Of a stretch of 52,384 nucleotides of DNA, positions 28,862-48,766 are shown piece by piece. The stretch covers positions 1-52,384 of the forward strand of contig CANFNX010000001.1 in the NCBI GenBank assembly GCA_947448495.1, written 5' to 3'. Origin of the DNA: Bacteriovoracaceae bacterium. Its GTDB lineage: Bacteria > Bdellovibrionota > Bacteriovoracia > Bacteriovoracales > Bacteriovoracaceae. The notes under the pieces were generated by a model that was not told the DNA's origin, made no database searches, and was given only the letters and a program-made list of their open reading frames with translations. Each line of letters opens with the position of its first letter. Position 1 is the stretch's first letter. The translations under genes were made by a program, and so were the position numbers.

Positions 28862-28869
28862 TCCTTCGA

Positions 28870-30656: not shown

Positions 30657-30663
30657 TCAGAAG

Positions 30664-30684
30664 AAAGGGGCGCGAAGCCCCTTT
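30664..30684 (-). terminator. Terminator after tatA
   Basis: AAAGGGGC-gcgaa-GCCCCTTT. Confidence 0.75.
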
Positions 30685-30686
30685 AT

Positions 30687-30962: not shown

Positions 30963-30965
30963 AGC

Positions 30966-31316
30966 TTACTTCTTGTCAGTAGCAAAAATGCTAGCTGCAG
31001 AACCACCGATTTGAGACTTGAGAATTTTAAGCTTTCCCCCATTTTCAATTTCTAGCGTAACAGCTTTTTCAGCAATGGCAGTAACTTTCCCTAGGATGCC
31101 AGACTTCGTATAAATCTCATCTCCATGAGCAAGTTTGTTGATAAAGTTTTGCTCTTCTTCCATACGCTTTTTCTGAGGACGAATCATAAGGAAGTACATA
31201 ACTAAAAAGATTAGAACGAAAGGAATGAATGACATAAATGGTGATTGAGCAGTTGCAGCCGATGCAGCTGCTGTTGCTGCTTCAGCATGAGCAGATGAAA
31301 TAAGTAGATCTAGCAT
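30966..31316 (-). CDS. yajC: Preprotein translocase subunit YajC
   Basis: YFLMIRPQKKR, GDEIYTKSGILG. Confidence 0.96.
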   Translation of the reverse strand: MLDLLISSAHAEAATAAASAATAQSPFMSFIPFVLIFLVMYFLMIRPQKKRMEEEQNFINKLAHGDEIYTKSGILGKVTAIAEKAVTLEIENGGKLKILKSQIGGSAASIFATDKK

Positions 31317-31329
31317 AATTTATCCTTTG

Positions 31330-32866: not shown

Positions 32867-33193
32867 TTATCCGCCAATTTTCTCATCGATACATTTTGTA
32901 GTGAACTCTAAAAAGCTGATTTCGTGATCAATAACAACGTTTTCAAGTTCAAGAACATCACTGTCTAATTCTAATTGCTGAATTTTATCTTTTTTATTTG
33001 TTCTCTTTGCTAATTTAGAAGCGACTTCCTCTCTCACCATTTTTAGTTCATTTTGCTTAACATTCGACATCAGTTTACTCATAAGTTGAATATCATTTAT
33101 CGACAATTCATTACACTTTAGGTTTCCCCATTCAACTGTTGCAAATGCATTAACTGAAGAAAGAACGATTAGAGAAGCGATAATTTTTTTCAT
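32867..33193 (-). CDS. Secreted helical hypothetical protein
   Basis: GGAG RBS before MKKIIASLIVLSSVNAFA at 33193. Confidence 0.72.
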   Translation of the reverse strand: MKKIIASLIVLSSVNAFATVEWGNLKCNELSINDIQLMSKLMSNVKQNELKMVREEVASKLAKRTNKKDKIQQLELDSDVLELENVVIDHEISFLEFTTKCIDEKIGG

Positions 33194-33473
33194 GATGATC
33201 TCCGTATTGATTGTTAAATAAAAGGAAATATTTTTGGAGATCATAGCGGAGATTATTTTATTTCTCAGTGCCTTTGAAAAAGTTATGAGGGTGAATAAAA
33301 AAGTGTAAAGAAATTAGACAGTGATTTCAAAAAATGGACGCTCTTTCTGAGGACTCAGTTCCATTCCAACGACCCATTAACCGAGATAAAGCTTTTGAAT
33401 GCTCCAAGTTATTGAAAATCAGTCGTTTTATTACCCTCCAATGATTTATTCCCACACCCCAATGAAGGTAACT

Positions 33474-33492: not shown

Positions 33493-34242
33493 ATGAAGAG
33501 TATGAAATCTTTTGGTTTGTTTTGCCTTGGACTCTTTTGCCTGTGGCCCGTATCGGGTCGCTCCAAAGCATTGCCAAATCATAAGCAGTGTTTTTCAAAT
33601 CATATTCAACAGGCCTTGCAGATCAATTCAAAGCGCAAAAAACTTTACCACAAGCTTAGCCACGGGCAATCAGATCTCATTTATACAGAATTAATGACGA
33701 TGGAAAGGCTCACCCTCAAATTGGCCAGGTGGATCGATCAAAGGGCAGAGGTTTATCACAATCATGGAATGAATCTTTTTTGCTCTGAATTCTTACCCAT
33801 GCAAGAAAAAGATCTAGATACTAGTATCCCTGAAAATCCAGGGAGAGAATTTGACTGGAAAAAATATCAGCGTCCCCTGACTCGAGCACTTAAGGCCAAT
33901 CACTTTGATGAAGTTCGTCGTCTCTCCCTTGACGCCCTCGTCGAGTTAAAAGATGGCCCGCAATTTCATTGTCTCTCTCGCCATTTTTTTGAATCCATTT
34001 ATCGCTTTGCCTATTTTGCTCCAAAAAGAATGACTGAGGCCAAGGCACTTCATCTTAAATCACCAAAAAAAATGCTGAAGCAAATTATTCAAGGACACAT
34101 TTTAGGTCTATGGTTTGTAAATCACATTGATAAGAAAGCAATGCCTTTGCAAATGCAGGGAATTCCCATGCTTTGTCATGAATTACCTGAATTATTAAAT
34201 GACATAAAACTTGATGAACTGAGAGCTCTTAAAGAGCAATAG
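33493..34242 (+). CDS. Secreted helical hypothetical protein, first gene of the cluster
   Basis: Signal-like N terminus; 8 nt from the next gene; start may be 33502. Confidence 0.75.
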   Translation: MKSMKSFGLFCLGLFCLWPVSGRSKALPNHKQCFSNHIQQALQINSKRKKLYHKLSHGQSDLIYTELMTMERLTLKLARWIDQRAEVYHNHGMNLFCSEFLPMQEKDLDTSIPENPGREFDWKKYQRPLTRALKANHFDEVRRLSLDALVELKDGPQFHCLSRHFFESIYRFAYFAPKRMTEAKALHLKSPKKMLKQIIQGHILGLWFVNHIDKKAMPLQMQGIPMLCHELPELLNDIKLDELRALKEQ

Positions 34243-34250
34243 GATCTTGT

Positions 34251-35231
34251 ATGGCAAAAATTAGTGTTTATCTCAATTCAAATTCCTCTCAGGGGGATTC
34301 AAGCTTTAGAGCTGAAGAGCTAAAAAAGTTTTTCTTTCGCCATGAGATGCAAGTAAAAAGTCCTCGCTCTATTGAAGAGCTTAATCAACAACTTCACGAT
34401 GATGTTCAAAATGGAACACAATATGTCTTTGCCGCAGGTGGAGATGGAACGATGAATGCTGTTTCTCAAAGCCTCGTCGACAAAAATATAAAATTAATGA
34501 TTCTGCCCGCCGGTACGGCCAATGATTTCGCAAAGGAACTAGGACTAACCAATAATTTAAAAAAAATCACACAGATATTTAATGCCCAAACCACAAAAAA
34601 AATCGACGCCATCAACGTCAATGGCCGCTTCATGATGACCAATGGAGGCATCGGGATGGCATGCGAAGTCGCCGCCACTGTTGATCGGATGAGAAAACAA
34701 AGTTTACTCTTTAAGAAAATGATGAAAACGATTGGCAAAGAGACTTATTCACTAGTCTATGCGCAGAAGATGTTAACCAAGCCTTATCACGCCAGAAGAG
34801 TTTTCATACAATCAAAAGACTCACCTCTTTTAGATCCAAGAGTCTCGACTCCCATGATCCTTATTAACAACCAAGAGTTTATTGGTGGGAAATTTCAAGT
34901 CGCTCCTAAAACACTTAATGATGATGGAAAATTTAATGTGACAATCTTTTTGCATCAGAATCGCATGGACTTTTTGAAATGCACATTGATGATGATGCAA
35001 GGAAAGTGTCCCACAGACGATAAAAATCTCATCAGTTTTGAAACGGATGACCTCAGCTTGCTTTCATTAGACGACAAACCACTTACATTTTTTGGGGATG
35101 GTGAAATCTTCCCTGAACAAAAAGAGATGCATATTTCTATTCGTCCGCAGGCCCTTGAGGTTTGTTCTTACAAGGGCGAATCGATGCTCTGTGCAAGTCA
35201 CTCTCTAGACAAAATTGATATGATCCAATGA
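34251..35231 (+). CDS. Diacylglycerol/sphingosine kinase family lipid kinase
   Basis: AAGGDGTMNAV, LPAGTANDFA, DDGKFNV, GDGE. Confidence 0.92.
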   Translation: MAKISVYLNSNSSQGDSSFRAEELKKFFFRHEMQVKSPRSIEELNQQLHDDVQNGTQYVFAAGGDGTMNAVSQSLVDKNIKLMILPAGTANDFAKELGLTNNLKKITQIFNAQTTKKIDAINVNGRFMMTNGGIGMACEVAATVDRMRKQSLLFKKMMKTIGKETYSLVYAQKMLTKPYHARRVFIQSKDSPLLDPRVSTPMILINNQEFIGGKFQVAPKTLNDDGKFNVTIFLHQNRMDFLKCTLMMMQGKCPTDDKNLISFETDDLSLLSLDDKPLTFFGDGEIFPEQKEMHISIRPQALEVCSYKGESMLCASHSLDKIDMIQ

Positions 35232-36262
35232 ATATTCTCATCATCGGTGGGACTGGTTTTATCGGTCAGCGTTTAGTCAGACGCCTTCATCAAGAAGGCC
35301 AGAAGATTTTTCTCTTGGTTCGACCGAAAAGTATTGAAAAGGCAAAAAGACTTTTTGCAGATCTTTCAGACATCACATTTCTGCGTGGAGATATTGAAAA
35401 CACGGATCTACTTGCAGATGTAGGGCAAACAGGAAAAGTTTCAGATCAAATAGATTGCCTCATACATCTCGCGGCCGTTTACCAACTTGATATATCCCCA
35501 TCAGAGGCCTATATTCAGAATGTCGTCGGGACTCAAAACGTCCTCAAGTTCATAACCCGCTTAAAAAATCTTCGCTACTTTCATTACTTTAGTACTTATG
35601 CAGTCAATCAGGTTCTTTCAGGACAGGTCAAAGAATCTGATCTTATTCCAGAGAGCTCTCATTTTTTTGATGAATACGCCCGAAGTAAAAACCAAGCCGA
35701 GCACCTGGTGCGGGAACTCACTCCCAAATCTATTTACACTATCATCCATCGACCTGGTATTGTGGTGGGAGATTCCGTCACTGGGGAGCGTGATAAGGAT
35801 GATGGTCCTTATTATTTTTTTAACTTCATTCAAAAAATTAAATCACTCGGTAAAATTTCAGAAAAACTGAAAGTACTGCCACTACCTGTTGAGTCGAATT
35901 CTCTGATGCCAGTTATCCCCGTCAACACTTTAATTGAGTGGTCCACACAGATTATTTTAACACCAGTGGAGAGGCCTATCACTTGCTATCATCTCGTCCC
36001 TAAGCAGGAGATTAAGACAAAAGATTTTCTCCAACTTTCTATAGATCTGTTAAACTCTCCCTTAAAGATTGTTGGCATTTCAGTGAGCGGAATGTTCCCA
36101 CCCATCTTTAAGTTGTTACGACTTCCAGAGCAATTAGTCTTTTACATGAAAAGTCGTGCTCGATTGGATCGCTCTCAGCTTGAAGCGGACTATCCCGAAC
36201 TTACTGGTCCTGATTATAAAGAGTATCTGCCGAATTTAATAAAGGCATTTTTGGCCAAGTAA
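35228..36262 (+). CDS. Extended SDR, fatty acyl reductase/thioester reductase-like
   Basis: GGTGFIG, HLAAVY, NVVGT, YARSK (YxxxK), RPGIVVGDS. Confidence 0.88.
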   Translation: MNILIIGGTGFIGQRLVRRLHQEGQKIFLLVRPKSIEKAKRLFADLSDITFLRGDIENTDLLADVGQTGKVSDQIDCLIHLAAVYQLDISPSEAYIQNVVGTQNVLKFITRLKNLRYFHYFSTYAVNQVLSGQVKESDLIPESSHFFDEYARSKNQAEHLVRELTPKSIYTIIHRPGIVVGDSVTGERDKDDGPYYFFNFIQKIKSLGKISEKLKVLPLPVESNSLMPVIPVNTLIEWSTQIILTPVERPITCYHLVPKQEIKTKDFLQLSIDLLNSPLKIVGISVSGMFPPIFKLLRLPEQLVFYMKSRARLDRSQLEADYPELTGPDYKEYLPNLIKAFLAK

Positions 36263-36265
36263 ACC

Positions 36266-38305
36266 ATGAAAGAGATCATCAAACTTAGTTTTGGAAGCTC
36301 ACGAGAAAATTTCGACCAGGTGGTCGAGATGAATGGTGAGCAATTTCATGTTAGAGGTCTTGGCGCCAACTATGACTTTGATCTTGCCCTAGAAATCGTC
36401 AAACGATATGCCTCTGAATGCGACGCCTTTGCTCTGTCTGGGTTTATCCTGGATATTAAGGTCGGCAAAGAAACCTACGTTCACCACATGGTGAAAAAAA
36501 TCAGAGAGGCAGCCCAGGGCAAACCAGTTCTGGATGGTAATATGCTCCGGAAGGCGGCCATCCCTTGGGCGATGAAAAAATACCTCGAGCAAGATAAACA
36601 TTTTCTCTCGAACAAAACTATCGCTTTTTATACGGGACTTGTTCAGTGGAGCTTTCTCCCCTTTTTTGATGAATATCAATGCCACTTACTTTTCGGAGAT
36701 CTTTTTTTCTCATTAGGAATCCCTGTCTCAATTGATGGGATGAAAGGTCTAGAGACTTTTTTGAAAATCAATGCCCCTCTGCTTTCCCGCATGAAACTCA
36801 ACAAGAAAGTGATTCGCGACTTTAGCTCCTATCAAACGAAAAATAAGCTTATGCAGCCGTTTCTAGATGCTGATATCTTTTTTGTGACTGAATCACAACT
36901 CAAGTTTACTGAGCTTAATGACCTACGGGGGAAAACGGTTGTGATTGACCGCCTCACTGAAGAAAATGAAAAGAAAATTTTTCAGGCAAAGGCCGATCGT
37001 ATTCTTAATCTCTTCCCCATCAATACCCATGACAATCAATTAAGTTCATCTGTCATAGAGGCGATTCTCAGTGTCACCCGTGGCAATGGATTTGTAAGTG
37101 AAGAAGATATTTTAGAAAATCTACAAGAGACTCAAATCCGTCCTGTGATGCATGAATCCTCAAATAAACAATTGGGTCACGATCAATTTGCTTTTATCAT
37201 TCACCCACTTTCAAAATCTCAAATCGCTCAAATACCAGGACTGGAATTTTTGAAGAAAACACCTCTCCTGGACGTAGCCGAAAATGTGGCTTCCAAACTC
37301 CCTGGATATCATTACTGCCAGATTACTGGAATCAAGTCAGACTTTAATGGCAAGGAAGTCACTGGAGATCTTTACTTGCTGCCTTCTACGCCCAAAATGC
37401 TGCTCACCAATCCCACTGAGAAAGTTTACGATGCTCTTAATTCAATTTGTGAGATGGCCCATAAAAAAGGGGCCAAGCTGATTGGCCTAGGCGCCTATAC
37501 AAAAATCGTTGGCGATGCGGGAATTACAGTCAATAGACGCTCTCCTATTCCCGTCACGACAGGAAACTCACTTTCCTCAGCTGCCACCCTTTGGGCCGCG
37601 AGTTACGGTATCGATAAAATGGGATTAGTGAAAAAATCCAATAACCACTATCACGGCACCTGTATGATCATCGGGGCGACAGGAAGTATTGGAAAAGTTT
37701 GCGCTCGAATTCTATCCAAGCAGTGGAATAAAGTTGTGGTGGTGGCCCCACGTCCTTATAAGGTGCTAGAACTGGTTTCGCAGCTCAAAGAGTTTGCTCC
37801 TGAAACCGAAATCATTGGAACAACCAATCCAAATAAATATTCACCTGAATCGGATCTGATTATCACGTCGACCTCTGCTCAAGGAGAGCGAGTTCTAGAT
37901 ATTGATTTGGTTAAACCTGGATGCGTGATTTGTGATGTCTCTCGCCCATTTGATATTTCCCTGGAAGATGCGGCCAGAAGACCTGATGTTCTCATTATTG
38001 CCAGTGGTGAAGTTGATTTGCCAGGAGACGTGAAAGTCCAAAAGACCATAGGCCTTGAGGGTGAAACAGTTTATGCTTGTCTGGCAGAAACGGCGTTGCT
38101 CACCATGGAAGGAACCTTTGAGAGTTTTTCTTTGTCACGAGAACTTTCCTATGAAAAAGTCGTGCAAATTGATCGGCTTTCACGAAAGCACGGGATCAGG
38201 CTCTCAAGCATTATGGGCCATACCGGTGAAATCAGTGAACTTGAAATCGCTTCTTGCCGTGAACTTGCGATCCAAAAACTCGCCACCTCAATTATTCCTG
38301 ACTAA
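36266..38305 (+). CDS. Fusion of an unknown N-terminal domain and an acyl-ACP reductase (AAR)-like domain
   Basis: C-terminal half FAFIIHP, GLGAYT, TTGNS, GATGSIG, DVSRP, YACLAE (catalytic Cys position of cyanobacterial AAR). Confidence 0.75.
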   Translation: MKEIIKLSFGSSRENFDQVVEMNGEQFHVRGLGANYDFDLALEIVKRYASECDAFALSGFILDIKVGKETYVHHMVKKIREAAQGKPVLDGNMLRKAAIPWAMKKYLEQDKHFLSNKTIAFYTGLVQWSFLPFFDEYQCHLLFGDLFFSLGIPVSIDGMKGLETFLKINAPLLSRMKLNKKVIRDFSSYQTKNKLMQPFLDADIFFVTESQLKFTELNDLRGKTVVIDRLTEENEKKIFQAKADRILNLFPINTHDNQLSSSVIEAILSVTRGNGFVSEEDILENLQETQIRPVMHESSNKQLGHDQFAFIIHPLSKSQIAQIPGLEFLKKTPLLDVAENVASKLPGYHYCQITGIKSDFNGKEVTGDLYLLPSTPKMLLTNPTEKVYDALNSICEMAHKKGAKLIGLGAYTKIVGDAGITVNRRSPIPVTTGNSLSSAATLWAASYGIDKMGLVKKSNNHYHGTCMIIGATGSIGKVCARILSKQWNKVVVVAPRPYKVLELVSQLKEFAPETEIIGTTNPNKYSPESDLIITSTSAQGERVLDIDLVKPGCVICDVSRPFDISLEDAARRPDVLIIASGEVDLPGDVKVQKTIGLEGETVYACLAETALLTMEGTFESFSLSRELSYEKVVQIDRLSRKHGIRLSSIMGHTGEISELEIASCRELAIQKLATSIIPD

Positions 38306-38361
38306 CTCTTTTTTTTCTTCGTTTCAATTGATTCAAAAATTGAACTACCGATAAGAAACAC

Positions 38362-39186
38362 ATGAAAATTCATCATCTTAACTGTGGATCATTTTGTCCA
38401 CTGTCGCACCCCTTACTTAATCGGGCCGTTCCAGAATTGGATCGCTTCAATTTAGTTTGTCACTGCCTGCTCATTGAAAGCGATCAGGGACTTATTCTTG
38501 TGGATACAGGATTAGGCCTGCAGGATGTGAGAGCTCATTCACGAATGGCGATAAATTTTTCATTTAATCGAATCGCCAAACCCAAATTGGATTTAGAGGA
38601 AACGGCCTTCATTCAAATCTCAAAGCTAGGCTTCAATCCCCTCGATGTAAAGCATATCATAGTGACTCACTTTGATGCTGACCACATTGGTGGATTAGCG
38701 GATTTTCCTTTGGCCAAAGTCCATGTTCTCAAAGATGAGTGGCTAGCGGCCCAAACCCCAAAGAGTGCCAGAGAGAAGGCCCGTTATCGGCAAATCAGAT
38801 GTGACCAAAATAAAGACGTAAAAGTTTACGAGACGCGTGGAGATTTGTGGCATGGTTTTAAACGTGTACAAAACTTAGAAGGGATTGACCCATCCATTTA
38901 TCTCGTTTCTCTTCCTGGACATACTCGGGGCCATGCAGGGGTCTATATTGAACAAGAGAATCCACTCTTCTTTGCAGGTGATGCTTTCATGCTTCAGACA
39001 CAACTCAAAAACGGCAAATCGCCCCTGGCCCTTGAGCTCTATAACCGGCTCGCCCATGAAGACCTTCAACTTGCAAAAGAAACTTTATTAAAGCTTCAAG
39101 ACATAGATCAACAAGAGCCTCAGATCAGCGTTTTCTGCTCACATGACAGAGGACAATTTCTCAACCTTGCTAAGGGGAAGCGATGA
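38362..39186 (+). CDS. Metallo-beta-lactamase-fold hydrolase
   Basis: LVDTG, THFDADHIGG, PGHTRGH, AGDA, CSHD. Confidence 0.93.
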   Translation: MKIHHLNCGSFCPLSHPLLNRAVPELDRFNLVCHCLLIESDQGLILVDTGLGLQDVRAHSRMAINFSFNRIAKPKLDLEETAFIQISKLGFNPLDVKHIIVTHFDADHIGGLADFPLAKVHVLKDEWLAAQTPKSAREKARYRQIRCDQNKDVKVYETRGDLWHGFKRVQNLEGIDPSIYLVSLPGHTRGHAGVYIEQENPLFFAGDAFMLQTQLKNGKSPLALELYNRLAHEDLQLAKETLLKLQDIDQQEPQISVFCSHDRGQFLNLAKGKR

Positions 39187-40565
39187 AACTGGCGCCAGGT
39201 CCAAGCTCCGTTTGGGAAAAAATTAAAATGCTCCTGAGTCGCAGACGTGATCCAATTCAATTTTATGAGGAGACCTTTAATCGATATGGAGACACAGTCT
39301 ATCTCAAATTCGGCAAGCTCGATTTTCTTATGGTTAGAAATCCCGAAGGTATTGAAGAAGTTCTACAAATTGATGCGAAAAATTATATCAAATCAGTCTC
39401 ATATGAAAGATTTCGTCTCGTTTTTGGTAATGGTTTACTTATCAGCAACGGAGAAACCTGGCGCAAGCAGCGTCTTTTAATGGCCAGTGCGTTTACCAGT
39501 AAAAGCATCGAGCGCTTGCACCCTCTTATTATTGAAGAATGCCAAGAGATGATGAAAAACTGGAAAGATGATGGGAAGTTCGATCTAGCCGAAGAAATGA
39601 ATCTTATCACACTACAAATTATCAGTAAATCTATGCTGGACCAACTGACGGATGAAGAAACAAAAACGATTCGTCAATCCGTGCAAGAGATTCTGCGCTA
39701 TCTACAAACATCTTATCACCATATCCTGATGATGATTCTGTCGATTGTGCCCGTAAAAGACAAAATCGCAGCGGCGATCAAAGTTGAATCTTATCTTCCC
39801 TTTCCAAAAGTTAAAAGCTTCTTTCGCGCCATTAAGAATATCGATGATCTTGTCCATTCAATAATTGAAAAAAGAAGGAAACTAAATCGCAATGATAATC
39901 TCCTGGATCAACTCATCAGGGCCACAGATGATCAGGGCCAAGGGAAAATGAGTAATCAACAGTTGCGTGATGAAGTGGTGAATATTCTGCTCGCTGGTCA
40001 TGAGACAACTTCTAATGCTCTGGCGTGGACTTTTCATCAAATTTTAAAATACCCAGAAGTTTATCAAAAGATGAAAGAAGAGATCAATCAAGTGGTCCAA
40101 GGAGAATCTCCTGCTTATGAAGATCTCTCTAAGCTCGTTTATACTCAGGCCGTTTTTAAAGAGTCCATGCGGCTCTATCCGCCCTTTTGGCGGGTCTCAA
40201 GACGCTCGCTTAAAGATACCAAAGTGAATGGTTATGATGTCCCAGCTGGAACCAATGTCATCACCGCCATCTATACTATTCAACGAGATGAAAGATACTG
40301 GGAGCATCCACTTGAATTTCGGCCTGAGCGTTTTCTCATCACTGACCCCAATCAACATCGATTTACCTATCTTCCCTTTGGGGGCGGCCCACGAATTTGT
40401 ATCGGTATTAGTCTTGCAATGACAGAAGCGATTACGATCCTGGCCAGTGTTTTAAAAAATTATGATATCGAAAAAGACTTTGACCAAGATCCAACACTTC
40501 TTTTGAGTATTACCATGCAACCCAAGGAGGGATGTAAGGTGAAACTTAAAAAGGTACAAAAGTGA
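39183..40565 (+). CDS. Cytochrome P450
   Basis: AGHETT, ESMR (ExxR), PERF, PFGGGPRICIG heme ligand. Confidence 0.97.
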   Translation: MKLAPGPSSVWEKIKMLLSRRRDPIQFYEETFNRYGDTVYLKFGKLDFLMVRNPEGIEEVLQIDAKNYIKSVSYERFRLVFGNGLLISNGETWRKQRLLMASAFTSKSIERLHPLIIEECQEMMKNWKDDGKFDLAEEMNLITLQIISKSMLDQLTDEETKTIRQSVQEILRYLQTSYHHILMMILSIVPVKDKIAAAIKVESYLPFPKVKSFFRAIKNIDDLVHSIIEKRRKLNRNDNLLDQLIRATDDQGQGKMSNQQLRDEVVNILLAGHETTSNALAWTFHQILKYPEVYQKMKEEINQVVQGESPAYEDLSKLVYTQAVFKESMRLYPPFWRVSRRSLKDTKVNGYDVPAGTNVITAIYTIQRDERYWEHPLEFRPERFLITDPNQHRFTYLPFGGGPRICIGISLAMTEAITILASVLKNYDIEKDFDQDPTLLLSITMQPKEGCKVKLKKVQK

Positions 40566-42844
40566 ACGCTATAAGTTTATTTCATGAAAAAGCTCAAAAG
40601 CATCCTGACAAGATGGCCATTACAGACATCAAAAATGGTGAACGTACTTTTAACGATCTCCTTGAATTAAGTTCAAAAGTTCAGTTTCTCTTAACACAAA
40701 AAAATATTGTCCAAGGCGACTCCGTCCTGCTGGCCCTTCTTCCCTCGCCCGAAATGTATGGTCTTATTTGTGGCCTCCTGGGCTCGGGTGTGAGAATTGT
40801 TTTTATCGAGCCATGGCTAAAACTTGATCGCATCAATGAGGTCATTAAAAGTATCCGCCCTAAGGCCTTTATCTCCGAAGGTCTTGGTAAGATCTGGGGC
40901 CTTCGCTCAAAAGAAATTAGAGATATTCCTCATTGGATTGGACCTAAAATACTTAAAACGATCACCACACAACATCCATTTAAGATAACTGAGGTCAATT
41001 CAGATCATCATGCTTTTGTTGTATTCTCCAGCGGCACGACTGGGGCCCCAAAGGGCGTGATTCGAACCCATGGCTATCTGACAAGTATCTTTGAGTTATT
41101 CGTACGCCATGAGCCTGAAGATTTTGAAACTCCAGATCTAGCAGTTTTTCCCAATGTCGCACTTTTTCATCTTTCAACAGGTAGAGGATCTATTATTGTT
41201 CCTCACAACTGGAATCGAAAGAATATGCATAAACTCATGGCCTATTGTGAAAAATACAAACCAGAGACCATGACATCAGGACCGGCCTTTCTAAAAAAGT
41301 TACTGGATGAGAAACTCACTGCAAAGTTGTCAAACTTTAAAAGAATCGTGATTGGTGGGGCCCTCACTGATTGCTGGCTCATGGAAAAAACGATCCAAGA
41401 ATTTTCCGGCGCCAGAGTCCTTCACATTTATGGTGGCAGCGAAGCTGAACCCATTGCCACTGCGAGTGCCAAGGAAGCTCTGAAAAGAAGCCAGGCCAAA
41501 GGATATTTCCAGGTTTTAGGGCTAGGCAAACCTATACCTGAAATTAAGTATCGATTCAAAGAAGATATTCTTTGGGTCGCAGGCCCCAATGTCGCCGGAG
41601 AATATGTGGGGGATGCGAGTCTTAATAGAGGCATCAAAGAAAGAGATGAAGCTGGAATTCTCTGGCACTGTATGGGCGACAGGGTCATAGAAGAGGACGG
41701 ATTTTTTTGGATCCAGGGCAGACAAAACCAACTCAAAGAAGATTTTGTTTTAGAGCAAAAGATTTATTCATTCTTAAAATCCTCGAAGGCCTTTATTTAT
41801 CGAGATGCCAATCAGAATGTAATCCTTTGTGGAGAGAATCTCAAAAGTAAGCAAAAAGAGATTCTCGAAAAATTTCCGGAGATTGATTTCATCATAGAAT
41901 CTAAAATTAAACGTGATCGACGTCATCGATCGCGAATTGATCGATTAAAAAGTTTACCATCAAACTATAGGACCCAACAAATGAACTGGTTTTCAAAATG
42001 GAATATCTACTTGCAGGAGCGCTCACCTCTTGCCGCTTTACTCGTTTTAGCGGGTCTTGGGTCTGTTTCCTCACTGGCCTTTAAGCAAAGCTTCGATGTT
42101 GTTCTCTTCTTAATGGGAATGATTTTTAATACCTTCATTTTCATTCAGCTTCGGTTAGGCGATGAGGTGAAAGATTTCGAAAAAGATAAGATCGTAAATC
42201 CAACAAGACCTTTGCCCAGAGGACTTCTAAGGCCATCTGAGGTTTTGCAGGCCATGCATCTCGTTATTGGGACCATTATTTTAGGGAGCATAGCACTTGC
42301 AATTTTTTATAATATCTGGGGCGCCATTCTTCTCACACTCTCCACAGTCTTTGGATTGCTCATGTATCATGAATTTTTCATGAGTAAGGAACTGAATAAA
42401 AGCCCATTGATTTATGCACTCACTCATCAGGTCATTGTTTTCTTTATTTATTCATGGATGGCCGTGGCCCAAGATCCTAGTGTGTTAGAAAATCGCGCCT
42501 ACTTGGGATGGCTCCTGGCCAATTTTGGATCTTCTTTTAGCTTTGAAATCTGCAGGAAACTTAATCCCAACGCACACCCCATGGCCCAAACCTATGCTCA
42601 ACACTATGGGAAAGAAAAAACCGTTTTGATTGCGAGTGTGTTTCTTTTTATTATGGGTATTGGTTCCTTTATCGCTGGTTTTGGTGTCTGGGTAATCTTT
42701 CCTGTGGTCACCGTATTTCTTATGCTTCTCAAATGGACTAAAGATTCATCCAATTTTAAGAAGATCGAAGGCCTCACGGCCCTCAGTGGGCTCATCGTCG
42801 CCCTAGCACCCGCTCTCATCTGGCTATTAAGATCATGGAGATAA
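40562..42844 (+). CDS. OleC-like AMP-forming enzyme fused to a UbiA-like membrane prenyltransferase domain
   Basis: FSSGTTGAPKG, YGGSEAEP, WHCMGD; after residue 474 multiple TMs with DEVKDFEKD...PTRPLPRG. Confidence 0.85.
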   Translation: MNAISLFHEKAQKHPDKMAITDIKNGERTFNDLLELSSKVQFLLTQKNIVQGDSVLLALLPSPEMYGLICGLLGSGVRIVFIEPWLKLDRINEVIKSIRPKAFISEGLGKIWGLRSKEIRDIPHWIGPKILKTITTQHPFKITEVNSDHHAFVVFSSGTTGAPKGVIRTHGYLTSIFELFVRHEPEDFETPDLAVFPNVALFHLSTGRGSIIVPHNWNRKNMHKLMAYCEKYKPETMTSGPAFLKKLLDEKLTAKLSNFKRIVIGGALTDCWLMEKTIQEFSGARVLHIYGGSEAEPIATASAKEALKRSQAKGYFQVLGLGKPIPEIKYRFKEDILWVAGPNVAGEYVGDASLNRGIKERDEAGILWHCMGDRVIEEDGFFWIQGRQNQLKEDFVLEQKIYSFLKSSKAFIYRDANQNVILCGENLKSKQKEILEKFPEIDFIIESKIKRDRRHRSRIDRLKSLPSNYRTQQMNWFSKWNIYLQERSPLAALLVLAGLGSVSSLAFKQSFDVVLFLMGMIFNTFIFIQLRLGDEVKDFEKDKIVNPTRPLPRGLLRPSEVLQAMHLVIGTIILGSIALAIFYNIWGAILLTLSTVFGLLMYHEFFMSKELNKSPLIYALTHQVIVFFIYSWMAVAQDPSVLENRAYLGWLLANFGSSFSFEICRKLNPNAHPMAQTYAQHYGKEKTVLIASVFLFIMGIGSFIAGFGVWVIFPVVTVFLMLLKWTKDSSNFKKIEGLTALSGLIVALAPALIWLLRSWR

Positions 42845-42845
42845 T

Positions 42846-45569
42846 ATGAGTAAGTATATTTTAACTAAAGAGAGCTCAATTGAAGACCTCAAAAGTTGGG
42901 GTGGAGGAAAGGCAACCAATCTCGCCAGACTTGCCAAGACGGGTGTCTCAGTCCCTCCCTGGATCTGTCTCTCAAGCCAAGCCTTTTCACAATTTATAAC
43001 CCAGTTCAAAGGTAAGCAACTTTGGGAATTACCCCACGCGGAAGTGGAAAAACTTTTTCTTTCCGCCTCTATTGATGAGTCCTTTGAGGAGGAGATCAAG
43101 TCTCTGCTTAAAGATAAATACCCACAGGGCTCAACCTTTGCCGTTAGATCTTCTGGTATTGGAGAGGACTCGGAGGACAACTCATTTGCTGGTCAGTTTT
43201 CTAGTTATCTCAATCAGCAGACAATTGAACAGGTCCTGAAAAGTATTAAACTTTGCTGGGCATCCTCATTTACTGAAAGAGCAAAAACCTATCGCCATGA
43301 AAGAGGGATAAAGACTGAAGCGTTTGCCATGGGAGTCGTGATTCAAAAAATGATCTTTGCCGACATTGCAGGGGTTGGCTTTAGTCGAGACCCCATTCAT
43401 CCCACGAAACGTGAACAACTCATCATCAGCTCTGTTTACGGAATTGGAGAAGGTTTAGTCAGTGGGGAGCTTGATGCTGATCATTTCTATGCTCATAGAC
43501 CCTCGTCTCAAAACGAAGATTTTAAGATTGACCCCCATTTGGTGAAAAAAGAGTTTATGTTTATCAAAAGCCCTCTTGGGGGGATTGAAAAAATCCATGT
43601 TCCACTTGAGAAGCAAGAGATTTCAAGTCTCTCATCAGAACAAATTCAAACTATTGCCTCGGCGCTGGTGAAACTTGAGGAAGCTCTTGGGTCCCCCCAG
43701 GATATCGAATGGGTCTTTGAAGGAAATCAATTTTATCTTGTTCAGACCAGACCCATTACAAATCTTCCCCCAGAGACGTTTTTTAATAAAAAAATTCTTG
43801 GGGAGGATTTTATCCTCTGGGATAATTCTAATATCACTGAATCCTACAATGGGGTGACAACACCCCTGACTTTTTCGCACGTCTCTCGTTCCTATCGGCA
43901 AGTTTATCTTCAATACTGTGAAGTCATGGGGGTACCGGCGGATGTGATCAAAGAAAATGAGCCCACATTTAGAAATATGCTCGGACTAATTAGAGGTCGC
44001 GTTTACTATAATCTTGGGAACTGGTATAAAATGATTTTCCTTTTTCCTTTCGCAGGCACATCCAAGGGTTTTATGGAAACCATGATGGGAGTGAAGCAAA
44101 ATCTGCGGCCGGAACTTGCGGCCCTTTTTGACTTTACTAAAAATCCTCCCCGCTACTCTTTTATTCGTAATCTCTATATTTTCTTTCGTAATTTTCTTCG
44201 CCTCATGAAAGTCAGAGCGTTTATCAATCAATTTAAAGAAGATTTTTTTAGAGTTTATAATAAGTCCAAAGCTGAGGACTACTCACAAAAAAGCATCAAG
44301 GATTTACTCGCGGCCTATGAACAATTGAATCAAGATCTCCTGTTTAAATGGAAGGCTCCCATCATCAGCGACACTCGTTGTATGATTTTCTTTGGTCTGC
44401 TTAAATCTCTGACAGAAAAATGGATTAAAAAGGATAATTCCCCCTCTCTCTATAATGATCTCTTAAGTGGTCAAGGAGACCTTCCAAGCACAGAGCCGAC
44501 AAGATGGCTTATGCGTATTGCGAAGAAAATTGATCAGAGAGATGCCGTTTTCAGAGAATGGTTTATTAAAACTCCCTCAGCGGAAATCCTAAAAGCCTTT
44601 AAATCTGGTAAGGGTTCAGAGATTTATAGCGACTTTCAAAAATTTATCGATACCTATGGGTTTCGATGCATCAACGAGCTGAAACTTGAGTCCATTGACC
44701 TGCATGAGGACCCTACCTTTGCCTTAGAAGCGATTATCAGTTTTGTACGGATGAAAAACACTTCCGTTGATGAAATTATAGAAAGAGAAAAGCAAACGGT
44801 AAAAAAAGCAGAAAAAATCATAGAAGACAACTTAGGAGGAGTGAAAATGATCCTCTTTCAATTTGTGCTCAAACAGGCCCGAATTTCGGTTAAGGATCGT
44901 GAAGACTTACGACTTCTTCGAACGAATATTTTTGGGATCATCCGAAGAATCTTTAAGGCGCTTGGGCATCGCTTGTATGAACTTAAATTGATTGAACAAC
45001 CTATGGATGTTTTTTATCTGACGATTGATGAACTCATCGCTTTTCAAGAAGGACGCTCACTTGAAGTGAATTTCAAAGAACTTTCGGCGCTTAGAAAAAA
45101 ACAATTTGCAGAGTTCCGCAAAACACCCCAACCTCCTGATCGCTTCTATACTCAAGGCAGCGTCGGGGCGAATCTCAATTTCGTGCAAATTATTGCAGAT
45201 CAAGACCTCCTGGCCGATGAGGCACCTAAATCTGATGATCCAAAAATTCTAATTGGAACACCTTGTTCACCTGGTGTGGTTGAAGGAATTGTTCGCGTTG
45301 TAAGAGAATCCGAAGATGCTGAAGGTCTCAATGGAGAGATCATGGTTTCTGAGCGCACTGATCCAGGATGGGTTCCGCTTTTCCCGTCTACTTCTGGGTT
45401 GCTGATTGAAAGAGGCTCACTGCTTTCCCATTCAGCTGTCGTGGCCCGGGAACTTGGAATCCCTACCATCGTAGGTATTCATGGGGGACTGATGAAAAAA
45501 TTAAAGACAGGGATGCGTGTGCGCATGGATGCATCCAAGGGCGAAATCAAAATACTGGATGACGAATGA
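42846..45569 (+). CDS. PEP-synthase/rifampin-phosphotransferase/PigC-like phosphotransferase
   Basis: GGKATNL, AVRSS, EDSEDNSFAGQF, DIEW, QTRPIT; C-terminal TDPGW and LLSHSAVVARELGIP phospho-His domain. Confidence 0.92.
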   Translation: MSKYILTKESSIEDLKSWGGGKATNLARLAKTGVSVPPWICLSSQAFSQFITQFKGKQLWELPHAEVEKLFLSASIDESFEEEIKSLLKDKYPQGSTFAVRSSGIGEDSEDNSFAGQFSSYLNQQTIEQVLKSIKLCWASSFTERAKTYRHERGIKTEAFAMGVVIQKMIFADIAGVGFSRDPIHPTKREQLIISSVYGIGEGLVSGELDADHFYAHRPSSQNEDFKIDPHLVKKEFMFIKSPLGGIEKIHVPLEKQEISSLSSEQIQTIASALVKLEEALGSPQDIEWVFEGNQFYLVQTRPITNLPPETFFNKKILGEDFILWDNSNITESYNGVTTPLTFSHVSRSYRQVYLQYCEVMGVPADVIKENEPTFRNMLGLIRGRVYYNLGNWYKMIFLFPFAGTSKGFMETMMGVKQNLRPELAALFDFTKNPPRYSFIRNLYIFFRNFLRLMKVRAFINQFKEDFFRVYNKSKAEDYSQKSIKDLLAAYEQLNQDLLFKWKAPIISDTRCMIFFGLLKSLTEKWIKKDNSPSLYNDLLSGQGDLPSTEPTRWLMRIAKKIDQRDAVFREWFIKTPSAEILKAFKSGKGSEIYSDFQKFIDTYGFRCINELKLESIDLHEDPTFALEAIISFVRMKNTSVDEIIEREKQTVKKAEKIIEDNLGGVKMILFQFVLKQARISVKDREDLRLLRTNIFGIIRRIFKALGHRLYELKLIEQPMDVFYLTIDELIAFQEGRSLEVNFKELSALRKKQFAEFRKTPQPPDRFYTQGSVGANLNFVQIIADQDLLADEAPKSDDPKILIGTPCSPGVVEGIVRVVRESEDAEGLNGEIMVSERTDPGWVPLFPSTSGLLIERGSLLSHSAVVARELGIPTIVGIHGGLMKKLKTGMRVRMDASKGEIKILDDE

Positions 45570-46630
45570 GCCAGTTTACACTTATTAAAATGACTTCCGT
45601 AAGAGATGATTTATTCATCAAAGAGTTTATGGATTTCACTCAAAAAGTTCGCCATCCACCTTACGATGTAGGATTGCCCGGCCGGGAGCAAACTCAAAAA
45701 ATGATCATGTGGGGCCACCATCATGGTTCACAGTTTTGGATGATCAAAGATGAAAGCGATCAGGTTGTTTTGCGCATGAGTTTGAGAATCCATCCCCCAG
45801 ACAAATCCAAAGGGACAATTGGTTTTTTTGAAATTCAATTAGATCATCCTCAGTACCAAGAAGCCTTTCTCTTTATGATGAGAGAGGCCGAACGATGGTT
45901 TAAAGAGCAGAATGTTAAAGAAATTATTGCCCCAATTGATCTCAACACATGGTTCAATTACCGATTCTGTATCCCGAGTCGCAAATTTTTTCCTCGCTTT
46001 AAGTGGGAGCCGACTCAACCACCGGAGTATCTTGACCTCTTTAAAAATTTTCAATACCAACAATACTCGCACTTCAACTCTGTATTTTTTCCTCATATTC
46101 GTATTGGAACATTCGCACCAGGAACAGGACATTTAAAGCGCTCCTACAACCGACTTATAAAAATGGGCTATACTCTTAGACCCTTTGATAACGAAAATTT
46201 TAAAACAAAAGAGCTTCCCATTTTTTATGAAATCTCACATGAAGCTTTTGCCGATTCTCTGATGTTCGATCCAATCGACTTTGAAACATTTGCAGAGCTC
46301 TATGCCAGCGGCAAAACCGTCTATGATTTTTCTCCTTCTCGCGTTCTGGTGAGTCCCGAGGGTGAGATTTGTGGATTCCTCTTTGCCTTTTTTGATGGAG
46401 AGACTTATGTCATAAAATCACTGGCGCTTAAAAAGAAATTCCAAGGACTCAAACTTTCTTCCGGTATGGTTTATCCCGGAATCCTCATGGCCTTTGAGCA
46501 AAAGAAAAAGGCCACTGTCTCCGCCTTAGTTCGAACTGGAATTACCTCAGATAAAATGAATGGTAGTAGTCGAAAATGGACATGGTTTGCATGGACTCAT
46601 GATTATCTTCTTTTAAAAAAGGATCTCTAA
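45566..46630 (+). CDS. GNAT-fold acyltransferase-like protein
   Basis: IGFFE, IIAPIDLNTWFNYRF, VIKSLALKKKFQGLKLS (variant acetyl-CoA-binding motif). Confidence 0.7.
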   Translation: MSQFTLIKMTSVRDDLFIKEFMDFTQKVRHPPYDVGLPGREQTQKMIMWGHHHGSQFWMIKDESDQVVLRMSLRIHPPDKSKGTIGFFEIQLDHPQYQEAFLFMMREAERWFKEQNVKEIIAPIDLNTWFNYRFCIPSRKFFPRFKWEPTQPPEYLDLFKNFQYQQYSHFNSVFFPHIRIGTFAPGTGHLKRSYNRLIKMGYTLRPFDNENFKTKELPIFYEISHEAFADSLMFDPIDFETFAELYASGKTVYDFSPSRVLVSPEGEICGFLFAFFDGETYVIKSLALKKKFQGLKLSSGMVYPGILMAFEQKKKATVSALVRTGITSDKMNGSSRKWTWFAWTHDYLLLKKDL

Positions 46631-46631
46631 C

Positions 46632-47714
46632 GTGGCAGAAGTATATTTTCAGGGTCTTAATTATAGTTTGGCCAATGAAGATACGTGGGTAGAATATAAA
46701 CTGGCCCCAGAAAATGCGAAGTCTTATTTTGCCGTCTGTGGCTCAGGCTCGCGTGTCATTCCCTTGTTGGCAAAAAACCCACAAGAACTTCACATAGTTG
46801 ATCTTTCAGAAGCCCAGTTAAAACTTTTCCGACTCCGTCTCGAGGCCATAAAAAAGCTAACCTACGAAGAATACCTTTATTTTCTTGGCTATGATAACCA
46901 CTCCTCGAAAGAAAGTCGCGCTGATCTCTTTTCGCGCTTAACGCTTTCTGAAGATGATCAGCAATATTGGAAGCATTTTGAAAAAGACTGGCTGCCTTCA
47001 GGTTTGATTTATCTCGGGCGATGGGAGCGACACTTTATGATGTTGGGAAGACTTTTTCAAAGGCTCACTTTTTCAAATCTCCTCCCACTCTTTGCCACCC
47101 ATTCTTTTCAAGAGCAGCAGGCGATCCGTGAGAAGTACTGGAAGGAAAAACTCTTTATCCTCTACACACGAATTGTGATGAATGAGTGGGTGGCCAACAA
47201 GCTACTCTACAAAGGACACTTTGCAGGTGCCACCGATAAAAAGACTATGAAAATGTCTGCTGCAGATTATGTCTCCAGCGAATTCAATGATCTTTTTAAA
47301 AATACCTGGGTCAAATCAAATTACTTCCTTCAGCTTATTTTCCTGAACAAAGTGACTTTCAAGGAAGCCTTTCCAGCTGAATGTGATGAAGCGCTTTTTG
47401 ACAAAATCAAACATGGAACGACGAAGATTTTTTTCCATCAGAAGAATTTACTAGAACTTCTTAAAGAACGTCCCCATGATTTTTATTCTCTTTCGGATAC
47501 TTTTTCATATATGAGTGACTCGGAAGTCGCGAATTTTCTCTCCTCCCTGCCAGAGGAAATTCCCCACAAAACACTCATGGTGATCCGCACCTTTATGCGT
47601 AAACCGAGCTTTCAGGTGGTCTCACCGTGGAGCGAACAAATCGAAAGAAATAAGCAGTTGGCCAAAGAGGATTGCACGCGGATGTATGAATTTAGTGTTT
47701 TAGAAAAAACTTAA
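46632..47714 (+). CDS. DUF3419/BtaA-like SAM-dependent (3-amino-3-carboxypropyl) transferase
   Basis: LNYSLANED, VCGSG, VDLS, GRWE, SLSDTFSY, EDCTRMY; GTG start. Confidence 0.8.
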   Translation: MAEVYFQGLNYSLANEDTWVEYKLAPENAKSYFAVCGSGSRVIPLLAKNPQELHIVDLSEAQLKLFRLRLEAIKKLTYEEYLYFLGYDNHSSKESRADLFSRLTLSEDDQQYWKHFEKDWLPSGLIYLGRWERHFMMLGRLFQRLTFSNLLPLFATHSFQEQQAIREKYWKEKLFILYTRIVMNEWVANKLLYKGHFAGATDKKTMKMSAADYVSSEFNDLFKNTWVKSNYFLQLIFLNKVTFKEAFPAECDEALFDKIKHGTTKIFFHQKNLLELLKERPHDFYSLSDTFSYMSDSEVANFLSSLPEEIPHKTLMVIRTFMRKPSFQVVSPWSEQIERNKQLAKEDCTRMYEFSVLEKT

Positions 47715-48766
47715 CGAGAGCGTGGCTTTCTTAAAATAAGCATACCGTCTCCATACGAAAAAAAACGGTATCTTTTTTCTATCGCATGTTGATAGAGCTC
47801 CAGAACTTTTTCTCGTCCAATCAAGGAGCTCACGAGCATGAGTAATGAAGACTTAGGTAAATGAAAATTCGTCACCAACGCATCGATTGAATGGACTGGC
47901 CTACCTGGATGAAGAAAAATGGAAGTGCTTTTAAGGCCCCCATTGAGGTCAAACTCAATTCCCTTTTCAGCCCAGGAGCTCTCTAGTGTTCTAAGGCTAG
48001 TGGTCCCCACTGCCACAAGACGCTTGGCCTCTTTGATCTTTTTTAAATTTTCCTGGTCGATGGCAAAGAACTCCTCATGCATTTTGTGCTCGAGAATATT
48101 GGCCGCCTTCACTGGAGCAAAGGTTCCTGCTCCTACATGCAGAGTCACTGATGCCAGTGAATGACCTTGCTGGTTTAATTTATCTAAAAGAGATTGCGAG
48201 AAATGCAGACCAGCAGTCGGGGCGGCCACGGATCCCGTCTCACGAGCGTAAACAGTTTGATAGGTTTTCTTATCTAATTCATCACTTTCTCCACCGCGAA
48301 TATAGGGTGGGATTGGGATTTTACCGATGATCTCCAATTGGGTTAGCAACTCCTCATGGGGGAGATTAAATCTTACTAAGAATGTTCCATCGCCACAGAC
48401 CGTCTCTAAAGTCGCCTTCACTCGCCCAAAGTTGAATTCATCCCCCACTTTGCGTTTGCCGGATGCCCGAAGCATACAGGGATAAAGACCTTGCTGATGG
48501 AGAAGAGAGAGAACAAAAACCTCGGCTTCCCCGCCTGAGTTTTTGTGGCCTATCAGCCGGCAGGGAAAGACCCTGGAGCGATTGAACACTAAGGTAGATG
48601 CTGAGGGTAGAAAGTCCCCGATCTGCTCGTAAGTGGAATGAGTGATGAGATCCTGGGCTTCATCATAAACTAAAAGCTTTGAAGAGTGACGGTCGGGTAC
48701 TGGTCGCTCGGCTATAAGCTCCTGGGGCAAATCAAAATCATAACTTTTAAGCTCAAAATCAGTCAT
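47711..48766 (-). CDS. queA: S-adenosylmethionine:tRNA ribosyltransferase-isomerase
   Basis: YDFDLPQELIA, GSVAAPTAGLHF, TLHVGAGTF, TNFHLPKS, YRFFSYGD. Confidence 0.98.
   Translation of the reverse strand: MTDFELKSYDFDLPQELIAERPVPDRHSSKLLVYDEAQDLITHSTYEQIGDFLPSASTLVFNRSRVFPCRLIGHKNSGGEAEVFVLSLLHQQGLYPCMLRASGKRKVGDEFNFGRVKATLETVCGDGTFLVRFNLPHEELLTQLEIIGKIPIPPYIRGGESDELDKKTYQTVYARETGSVAAPTAGLHFSQSLLDKLNQQGHSLASVTLHVGAGTFAPVKAANILEHKMHEEFFAIDQENLKKIKEAKRLVAVGTTSLRTLESSWAEKGIEFDLNGGLKSTSIFLHPGRPVHSIDALVTNFHLPKSSLLMLVSSLIGREKVLELYQHAIEKRYRFFSYGDGMLILRKPRSR

Follow-up and report, generated by a model that had tools for sequence, protein, structure and literature searches.

Gene content of the cluster

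We analyzed a 52,384-nucleotide stretch of DNA from a Bacteriovoracaceae bacterium (GenBank assembly GCA_947448495.1, contig CANFNX010000001.1, positions 1 to 52,384), referred to here as the window, which is contig C1 of genome G000 (2.85 Mb, 86.6% complete). The subject of this study is a cluster of ten genes (g1 to g10) at positions 33493-47714, which forms a real, conserved, and apparently undescribed biosynthetic system of the lipid type and one version of a gene set common to many bacteria. All ten open reading frames (ORFs) lie on the + strand, with successive gaps of 8, -4, 3, 56, -4, -4, 1, -4, and 1 nt. This agreed with the original prediction, made from the letters of the stretch, of co-directional genes joined by 4-bp overlaps (at 35228, 39183, 40562, and 45566) with one 56-nt gap (38306-38361), and the family assignments given there were confirmed by profile and structure-comparison matches of the cluster proteins. 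The genes are as follows.

33493..34242, +: g1, 249-aa orphan protein with a signal-peptide-like N-terminus (by eye)
34251..35231, +: g2, 326-aa DAGK/YegS-family lipid kinase; GGDGT at 63; PF00781 (3e-19), PF19279, TIGR00147
35228..36262, +: g3, 344-aa extended short-chain dehydrogenase/reductase (SDR); PF07993 (2e-34); GGTGFIG and YxxxK present
36266..38305, +: g4, 679 aa; N-terminal domain (1-300) of unassigned kind and thioester reductase (307-665)
38362..39186, +: g5, 274-aa metallo-beta-lactamase (MBL)-fold hydrolase; HxDxDH at 103; PF00753 (5e-19)
39183..40565, +: g6, 460-aa cytochrome P450; heme Cys406; PF00067 (2e-96)
40562..41980, +: g7, N-terminal part (~1-473), OleC-like adenylate-forming ligase; PF00501 (1e-35); P-loop at 155
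41984..42844, +: g7, C-terminal part (~475-760), UbiA-like membrane domain; PRK13592 (2.5e-13); hydrophobic segments
42846..45569, +: g8, 907-aa RPH/PigC-type dikinase; PF01326, PF00391; catalytic His862
45566..46630, +: g9, 354-aa protein with a predicted tandem (two-domain) GNAT acyltransferase fold
46632..47714, +: g10, 360-aa DUF3419 (BtaA family) protein; PF11899 (5e-43), 148 bits against a cut-off of 28.2

Conservation of the gene set in relatives

Among 301 genomes of the phylum Bdellovibrionota, g8 was matched at E 1e-40 in 100. The match was strong in 88 genomes (1e-130, a threshold chosen after the scores had been seen), 87 of which also encoded a strong DUF3419 protein (1e-70 or better, as in 90 of the 98 matched genomes; the eight weak ones were set aside). 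The reductase g4 was present in 77/301 genomes, and all 77 had both g8 and g10. DUF3419 occurred without the rest of the system in G149. In the phylum of G301, 7/301 genomes were matched. Records of Gemmatimonadota and Chlamydiae and replicons of Brevibacillus and Roseinatronobacter also carry related clusters, as do metagenomes, in which 600 stretches yielded 457 relatives, 80 of them kept. These genome and locus counts are from samples, in which kin are not independent. The named g8 relatives at 65-77% identity were mostly Bacteriovoracaceae and Halobacteriovorax records, and the closest relatives of the cluster are in the Bacteriovoracaceae.

Gene neighborhoods were compared across 122 loci of at least 10 kb with a g8 homologue (five duplicates merged, the window excluded), using local hidden Markov models trained on part of these loci. 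The loci were selected by g8 score and cut at ~20 kb, and a gene missing from a locus may still be present in the genome. A fixed core of RPH/PigC-type dikinase and UbiA-like enzyme was present in 119/122 loci. Around it were found a ligase (95 loci, by a profile that also catches other ligases), DUF3419 (85), GNAT (82), a g3-like SDR (47), DAGK (44), the g4 N-terminal domain (43), P450 (33), an HMGR-like protein (32), a membrane kinase (26), a formyltransferase (19), a CarS-like protein (10), an APH kinase (7), and MBL (6). Export genes recurred as FtsX-type permeases (36), LolA-like proteins (30), and MMPL proteins (10), and a Lol-like export operon follows g10 in the close relatives L072 and L074.

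The idea of ten genes as one fixed unit did not hold, as the P450 and MBL are accessory genes. They fit the tailoring role that the original prediction gave to P450, GNAT, and MBL together, whereas the GNAT proved to be near-core in this cluster type. The OleC-like ligase, which had been given no role, is likewise near-core in the cluster type of the window. The formyltransferase variant, the CarS-type sister clusters, and the export genes of relatives were outside the scope of the original prediction. Gene order varied among the loci, and fusions of ligase with UbiA, hydrolase with ligase, HMGR with APH, and kinase with GNAT were seen. Scattering in relatives, named beforehand as a sign against a single system, was observed in that modules were split, inverted, or distant in several of them, but it did not extend to the shared presence of g4, g8, and g10.

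The orphan g1 had no match in Pfam, NCBIfam, or PDB, and 43 unnamed homologues of it were found. It was present in 21/122 loci and in 72/301 genomes, of which 70 also had g8 and 68 a strong g10 (lists compared by eye). As it tracks g8 and g10 genome-wide, we regard g1 as a member of the system, though often encoded far from the cluster.

Exchange of unrelated enzymes in related clusters

Three slots around the core were filled by unrelated enzymes that never co-occurred in the 122 loci. In the first, the SDR, PigE/AAR-like reductase, and DAGK of the window were replaced elsewhere by an FcrA-type HMGR homologue and a phytol-kinase-like or APH kinase. The g4-type reductase and the HMGR-like protein never shared a locus (0 of 43 and 32), nor did DAGK and the membrane or APH kinases (0 of 44 and 33). 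FcrA is described as an enzyme that converts fatty acyl-CoA to the alcohol and reportedly supplies other pathways besides that to wax esters; its signature is a Glu at the position of human Ser684 and a bulky residue at that of Leu862 (PMC11948995). The FcrA Glu, seven residues before the catalytic Lys, was present in 41/41 readable motifs of 46 HMGR-homologue ORFs, most of which also had an aromatic residue four before the His; it was absent from five mevalonate-type HMGRs of the same phylum. The homologues were assigned to the FcrA type by motif. Other reductases were seen at single loci, namely a FAR-like SDR (L193) and, on the opposite strand, a CAR-like A-T-R protein (L187).

The membrane kinase was named phytol, dolichol, or DAG-polyprenol kinase by the source records, and a profile comparison of it with one CarS-like protein revealed no similarity. 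We considered it as a VTE5+VTE6 fusion making a diphosphate and rejected this, as DUF92 was matched weakly in 1 of ~13 scanned copies and several copies are single 220-aa domains. The third kinase type is an APH/choline-kinase-like domain, a kind to which the ACAD10 kinase presumably belongs. One report describes ACAD10 as an alkylglycerol kinase (PMC13596139).

On a g8 tree of 119 proteins, built by a quick method after removal of 4 short sequences, the reductase and kinase types agreed in 66/66 loci having both, with at least 6 reductase and at least 8 kinase changes and 5/5 independent pairs concordant. Because unrelated thioester reductases and unrelated lipid-alcohol kinases repeatedly fill the same slots, a fatty alcohol and a lipid monophosphate are the probable intermediates.

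In the acylation slot, the tandem GNAT and the formyltransferase never shared a locus (0 of 82 and 19), with 2 changes on the tree. The formyltransferase keeps its N-x-H and Asp and is accompanied in 18/18 loci by a hydrolase-fused ligase, the hydrolase having a Ser, not Asp, nucleophile motif. This formyl variant is labelled Bdellovibrio bacteriovorus in databases. Replacement of the GNAT by a formyltransferase points to an amine in the pathway, and the aminocarboxypropyl group of S-adenosylmethionine (SAM), transferred by the BtaA-family enzyme, is its candidate source because it is the only one in view.

In the head-group slot, none of the 10 loci with the CarS-like protein had DUF3419 or the ligase. 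Distant g8 paralogues belong to sister clusters that lack DUF3419 and the ligase; these clusters encode CarS-like, desaturase, PlsC-like, methyltransferase, and thioesterase proteins. L206 combines the g2-g3-g4 module with a CarS-like gene. The CarS-like and PlsC-like partners suggest a phosphatidic-acid analogue. New in this analysis are a third solution, namely the DAGK/SDR/PigE-type module, as well as the formyl exchange, the mutual exclusion of CarS-like and DUF3419 proteins, and the membership of g1.

Sister clusters were observed at L206, L218-L222, and L225 (genomes G210, G026, G293, G041, G042, and G182); they encode a dikinase and a UbiA-like enzyme, often in a short 195-aa form, and some have an FcrA-APH fusion. 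Three different versions occur in G210. At L151:11824-14346, L211:3832-6747, and L214:3522-6503, an aminotransferase is fused to a g4-type reductase in TamH-like order with a second dikinase nearby, which suggests a fatty-amine variant, in which an amine would take the place of the alcohol; a P450 and a sulfotransferase-like ORF (by eye) are also encoded at L151. A further variant, at L212, L215, and L228, places the dikinase and UbiA-like enzyme beside a ketosynthase/ketoreductase, ligase, two ICMT-like methyltransferases, SDR, and P450.

Assignment of the individual enzymes

In a profile scan, no cluster gene reached the cut-off of a named pathway enzyme, and the assignments below are at the level of family and fold.

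The C-terminal domain of g4 resembles the PigE N-terminal domain and acyl-acyl carrier protein (ACP) reductases (NF053554, 3.2e-47; TIGR04058, 6.5e-14), and its structural relatives in PDB were 4ppm (6e-40) and 6jzu (9e-17). Cys605, invariant in 34 sequences, aligns with the AAR Cys motif (YAC/FAC-x-AE) in a Rossmann fold. The domain thus has the fold and catalytic Cys of the acyl-ACP reductase/PigE type, with a score under the AAR equivalog cut-off. Its partner g3 matched positions 1-269, the N-terminal half, of PRK07201 (4.5e-49), an AcrB-type fatty acyl reductase, and g3 likely reduces an aldehyde to the alcohol. The hydrolase g5 had weak AiiA-type lactonase scores, all under cut-off.

The dikinase g8 has the domain order of RPH (ATP-grasp, substrate domain, and swivelling His domain) with the His motif conserved, and its nearest solved structure was RPH 5fbs (3e-66). 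Its best scores (PRK06241.2-2, 850 bits; PigC, 326; RPH, 308) were all under the cut-offs, which were 1300 bits for PigC, 1350 for RedH (score 321), and 999 and 1700 for two RPH models (308 and 200). The rifamycin phosphotransferase RPH was therefore rejected as an identity for g8, since the architecture fits but the score is under the family cut-off.

The ligase part of g7 scored 175 bits with PRK09274 (cut-off 478) and 69-89 bits with OleC models (cut-offs 850-900), and these low scores ruled it out as OleC. It carries DRRHRSRI at 452 where OleC-type enzymes have DxRHNxKI, and it is 24% identical to the OleC-like protein of the same genome on contig C31, which scored 580 with PRK09274. The UbiA-like part is encoded as a separate gene in most relatives, and PF01040 was matched on homologues. 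The first acidic motif (RxxDExKDxxxD) is retained, with invariant residues across the homologues. The nearest solved structures were those of digeranylgeranylglyceryl phosphate (DGGGP) synthase (6m31, 1.8e-6) and chlorophyll synthase, and one homologue looked up in a protein cluster atlas led to UbiA clusters only.

Taken alone, g9 had no Pfam match. Its predicted model (mean predicted local distance difference test score, pLDDT, 91.8) aligned with the tandem GNAT 7q3a over 300 residues (Z 22.0, root-mean-square deviation 4.1). The g10 model (pLDDT 94.0) has a SAM-binding fold of class I into which a large helical segment is inserted; in the fold comparison, many SAM methyltransferases scored equally well at Z 11-12, and Foldseek gave no match at E 0.001. 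We predict g10 to be an aminocarboxypropyl transferase. A precedent for such transfer onto a phosphate is MccD (PMC10491745), and another report describes this activity as hard to predict from sequence (PMC11869996).

At L208:6782-8682 and L209:7741-9653, DUF3419 genes are paired with methyltransferase genes in an arrangement resembling btaAB, and such pairs suggest betaine lipid synthesis in some Bdellovibrionota. From context and motifs, we take the methyltransferases to be BtaB-like. g10 is 21-22% identical to the two paired DUF3419 proteins, which branch between the clade of the window and the other cluster-borne clade in a tree of 34 DUF3419 proteins (long branches, unrooted). Shared BtaA-type chemistry is favored because BtaA-like proteins branch among those of the clusters. 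Searches with the two BtaB-like proteins found none in G000 (86.6% complete) at E 1e-3 and none in the cluster loci at 1e-10.

Comparison with known pathways

The original prediction had set the cluster apart from diacylglyceryltrimethylhomoserine (DGTS), olefin, and prodigiosin synthesis and had noted no polyketide synthase (PKS), non-ribosomal peptide synthetase (NRPS), OleA, or BtaB in the window; none was recognized among the scanned window ORFs (a subset of all ORFs), and the three exclusions stand. The DGTS route (BtaA/BtaB) was rejected because the PF11899 enzyme is present but no BtaB-like gene was found in the genome or in the cluster loci; g10 belongs to the same DUF3419 family, and the position of the methyltransferase is occupied by a GNAT or formyltransferase. 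The OleABCD pathway was rejected because OleA, OleB, and OleD are not in the cluster and a separate oleABCD-like set lies on C31; the g7 ligase is nonetheless closest to the PRK09274/OleC family of beta-lactone synthetases and keeps the DxRH motif. Prodiginine and tambjamine pathways were rejected because no pyrrole or bipyrrole (4-methoxy-2,2'-bipyrrole-5-carbaldehyde, MBC) genes were among the conserved neighbors and the PigC and RedH scores were under cut-off. The g4 C-terminal domain is like the N-terminal reductase of PigE (TamH), but g4 has no aminotransferase; g8 shares its architecture and His with PigC (TamQ, RedH) and RPH, with scores under the cut-offs.

The archaeal ether-lipid pathway was rejected as such, since geranylgeranylglyceryl phosphate (GGGP) synthase and CarS are not in the cluster and a local profile gave no CarS-like match in G000. 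It resembles the present system in that the UbiA-like domain is nearest to DGGGP synthase and CarS-like proteins occur in sister clusters; it differs in that its chain comes from geranylgeranyl diphosphate (GGPP), whereas here a reduced acyl thioester, a kinase, and a dikinase would supply it, and the second acidic motif is altered. Plant VTE5/VTE6 prenol salvage employs two successive kinases, which convert an alcohol through its phosphate to the diphosphate for a UbiA-family enzyme. A VTE5-like kinase is present in the FcrA variant; here the second step would be catalyzed by a dikinase, and the chain would be fatty, not isoprenoid. In alcohol supply, the cluster is comparable to FcrA and AcrB/FarA systems, as FcrA-type enzymes replace g3 and g4 in relatives and g3 is like the N-terminal half of PRK07201. 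These systems supply the alcohols of wax esters and ether lipids, whereas here the conserved genes include none for a wax synthase, AGPS, or an ElbD-type protein, and the alcohol appears bound for a kinase.

Two further candidates were rejected. The nocuolin cluster has a DUF3419 neighbor and a methionine-derived unit, but it is FAAL- and ketosynthase-based (PMC9486936, PMC7923214); the bursatellin pathway has formyl, reductase, and aminocarboxypropyl steps, but it is NRPS-based and Nat-like (PMC11869996). No published description of the cluster was found in the literature searched, from which subscription journals and supplements were excluded.

Proposed pathway and alternative explanations

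We propose, with a probability of about 0.4, that the genes form one pathway to a fatty-alcohol-derived, probably ether-linked envelope lipid with a predicted N-acylated homoserine head; its ether-forming core, taken separately, is fairly unlikely. The model is drawn from gene content, folds, motifs, co-occurrence, and enzyme exchanges, from which all its reactions are inferred. The original prediction had ordered the steps as acyl chain, alcohol, phospho-activation, UbiA-like transfer, and homoserine cap. This outline is compatible with all our findings. The exchanges support the first two of these steps well, whereas the later order and the product are inferred.

In the first step, g4 would very probably form the aldehyde from an acyl thioester, and g3 would reduce this aldehyde to the alcohol, given the family assignments and the replacement of these enzymes by FcrA-type, FAR-like, and CAR-like reductases. 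In the second, g2 would phosphorylate a lipid alcohol. Formation of a lipid monophosphate is strongly indicated because two unrelated lipid-alcohol kinase families replace DAGK, and this product is probably an alkyl phosphate. The third step is tentative, with the odds nearly even: g8 may convert the alkyl phosphate to an alkyl diphosphate via phospho-His862, ATP being converted to AMP. The diphosphate suits g8, as a dikinase spends two phosphoanhydride bonds and UbiA enzymes use such donors. The fourth is rather doubtful: the UbiA-like domain could move the chain onto an acceptor, of which glycerol phosphate is the simplest candidate, to give an ether (lyso)phosphatidic acid analogue, as suggested by its likeness to DGGGP synthase and the sister clusters with CarS-like and PlsC-like genes. 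In the fifth step, g10 would probably transfer aminocarboxypropyl from SAM onto a lipid phosphate or hydroxyl (+101 Da, homoserine). Phosphatidylthreonine has reportedly been found in Bdellovibrio, and a link to the cluster is a lead only. Homoserine and allo-threonine lipids have the same 101 Da loss (PMC12221286). In the sixth, g9 would, with comparable likelihood, transfer an acyl group to the amine and perhaps to a second site, with the acyl donor from the g7 ligase and with formylation in relatives. The P450 and MBL would be optional tailoring enzymes, and the Lol-like ABC or MMPL systems found beside the cluster in relatives would export the product.

Several observations weigh against this pathway, and the middle of it is the weak part. 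UbiA-family transfer normally needs an allylic diphosphate, for which a saturated alkyl diphosphate is a poor substitute as donor, and nothing in the cluster points to an allylic chain. In the UbiA-like domain, the second acidic motif has become EIxRK, in which the Glu is kept, RK stands for KD, and the later Asp residues are gone. The kinase could possibly act after the UbiA step, because all three kinase families include glycerolipid-acting members. The window cluster has no glycerol-handling gene, and the fold of g10 suits methyl as well as aminocarboxypropyl transfer because many SAM enzymes tie with it. Regarding the exchanges, the independent-pairs test was not significant (p 0.0625), the head-group exchange is a single change on the tree, the membrane kinase had no Pfam, NCBIfam, or PDB match, and at L151, L211, and L214 the aminotransferase-reductase fusion and second dikinase replace the alcohol kinase. 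Thirteen of the 88 strong-g8 genomes were without g4; two of the thirteen have HMGR-APH in the locus (L069, L070), three are uninspected congeners of one of them, and one is 77% complete. No replacement thioester reductase was identified in six genomes of family f15 and G162, among which a g3-like SDR was present in all four searched. Finally, export genes are missing from the window locus.

Some of these points fit better with an alternative, itself unlikely, in which the alkyl (or glycerolipid) phosphate is the nucleophile and head carrier. g10 would form an alkyl-phospho-homoserine, g7 and g9 would turn this by N-acylation into a phospholipid with two tails and no glycerol, and g8 and the UbiA-like domain would attach another small group, much as decaprenyl-phosphoribose (DPPR) synthase attaches an activated group to a lipid phosphate. 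An unreactive saturated alkyl diphosphate is then not needed, the lack of a glycerol enzyme is expected, and the altered second UbiA motif with its extra basic residues and the inclusion of DAG and alkylglycerol kinases among the kinase families are accommodated; MccD offers a precedent (PMC10491745). However, the sister clusters keep the dikinase, UbiA-like enzyme, reductase, and kinase and add CarS-like and PlsC-like genes, which points to a glycerophospholipid intermediate made by the shared core, and no conserved candidate source of another activated group was found.

Slightly less likely still is a small lipophilic secondary metabolite. The kinship of g4 and g8 to PigE and PigC would allow g8 to activate a carbonyl in the PigC/TamQ manner for condensation with the chain of the PigE-like reductase, while g7 activates an acid, aromatic or other, for alkylation by the UbiA-like domain and g10 methylates. 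The TamH-like fusions with a second dikinase in L151, L211, and L214, the optional P450, and the patchy distribution (~30% of phylum genomes) agree with this. The absence of pyrrole, PKS, NRPS, and aromatic-precursor genes from the conserved set does not, and membrane lipid handling is indicated by the lipid kinases, of which there are three kinds, by the Lol-like and MMPL transporters, and by the CarS-like genes of sister clusters. A chance or co-regulated assembly of a wax/alcohol module (g2-g4), detoxifying enzymes (g5-g6), and a separate g7-g10 unit with g8 as a plain phosphoenolpyruvate (PEP) synthase or rifamycin kinase would account for the split, inverted, or distant modules, the frequent lack of g5 and g6, and the long packed runs elsewhere in the genome, but it is very improbable, being largely refuted by the co-occurrence of g4, g8, and g10 in 77/77 genomes, the re-joining of modules in many different orders and fusions, and g8 scores under the RPH and PEP synthase cut-offs without the PEP-synthase domain order.

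Genomic context

Tight packing by itself is not rare in this genome, in which runs of at least 8 genes made up 8/1408 and runs of at least 10 genes 4/1408 of the packed runs of ORFs of at least 150 aa. What goes beyond chance is the conservation of the gene set in relatives, not its packing. A scan of the window for promoters and terminators (39 and 27 sites vs 31.7 and 17.0 in shuffles) was uninformative about an operon. The GC content of the cluster (0.416) matches that of the genome (0.407), and there is thus no sign of a recent genomic island.

The neighbors of the cluster are in the opposite orientation: an ORF at 32867-33244 (-) and queA at 47711-48766 (-), the 3' end of which shares 4 bp with the end of the cluster. 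To the left lies tgt-yajC-secD-secF (27965-32442, -). As tgt-yajC-secD-secF and queA are often neighbors, the cluster may have been inserted into a tgt/sec-queA operon. Elsewhere in the window, a lower-GC stretch (4001-7000, GC 0.33-0.38) contains an ORF6N protein (5067-5585), close to a 221-aa ORF (7269-7934, +) matching the ADP-ribosyltransferase families PF03496 and PF01129. Large ORFs without a Pfam match were located at 12022-15171 (-, 1049 aa) and 25541-27142 (+, 533 aa), and an open-ended Ser/Thr-rich lipoprotein-like ORF, also without a Pfam match, at 50452-52384 (+).

In the rest of G000, contig C86 (L232:1384-6602) has a mevalonate-type operon with a class II HMG-CoA reductase (neighbors recognized by eye), and contig C31 (L230:783-5358) has an oleA-oleB-oleC-oleD-like olefin cluster. 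At the end of contig C52 (L231:4028-7793) lies a Lol-like ABC exporter (two permeases, ATPase, and LolA-like protein), a possible stand-in exporter for the window cluster; in the congeners L211 and L214, its site carries a sister cluster that is missing in G000.

Significance of the system

Bacterial routes to ether and other non-ester lipids are only partly known, and such lipids serve as biomarkers and bear on the lipid divide between bacteria and archaea. In its widest form, which we consider unlikely, the model would give bacteria of many phyla an ether-lipid route that copies archaeal logic with fatty chains, with an alkyl diphosphate made by a dikinase and an ether formed by a UbiA-like enzyme, to which Bdellovibrionota would add homoserine from SAM through a BtaA-family enzyme, giving an N-acyl or N-formyl homoserine ether lipid in the envelope. 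Possibly new chemistry includes the action of a dikinase on a lipid phosphate and the use of a non-isoprenoid chain by a UbiA-like enzyme, and FcrA would have a use outside wax esters. Should the ether interpretation fail, the family would still leave a widespread kind of exported lipid or metabolite to be explained. The family represents a concrete, testable candidate route to non-ester lipids. About 30% of the sampled Bdellovibrionota genomes carry the system, and as the database label of the formyl variant is that of a cultured laboratory predator, Bdellovibrio bacteriovorus, knockouts and lipidomics are feasible.

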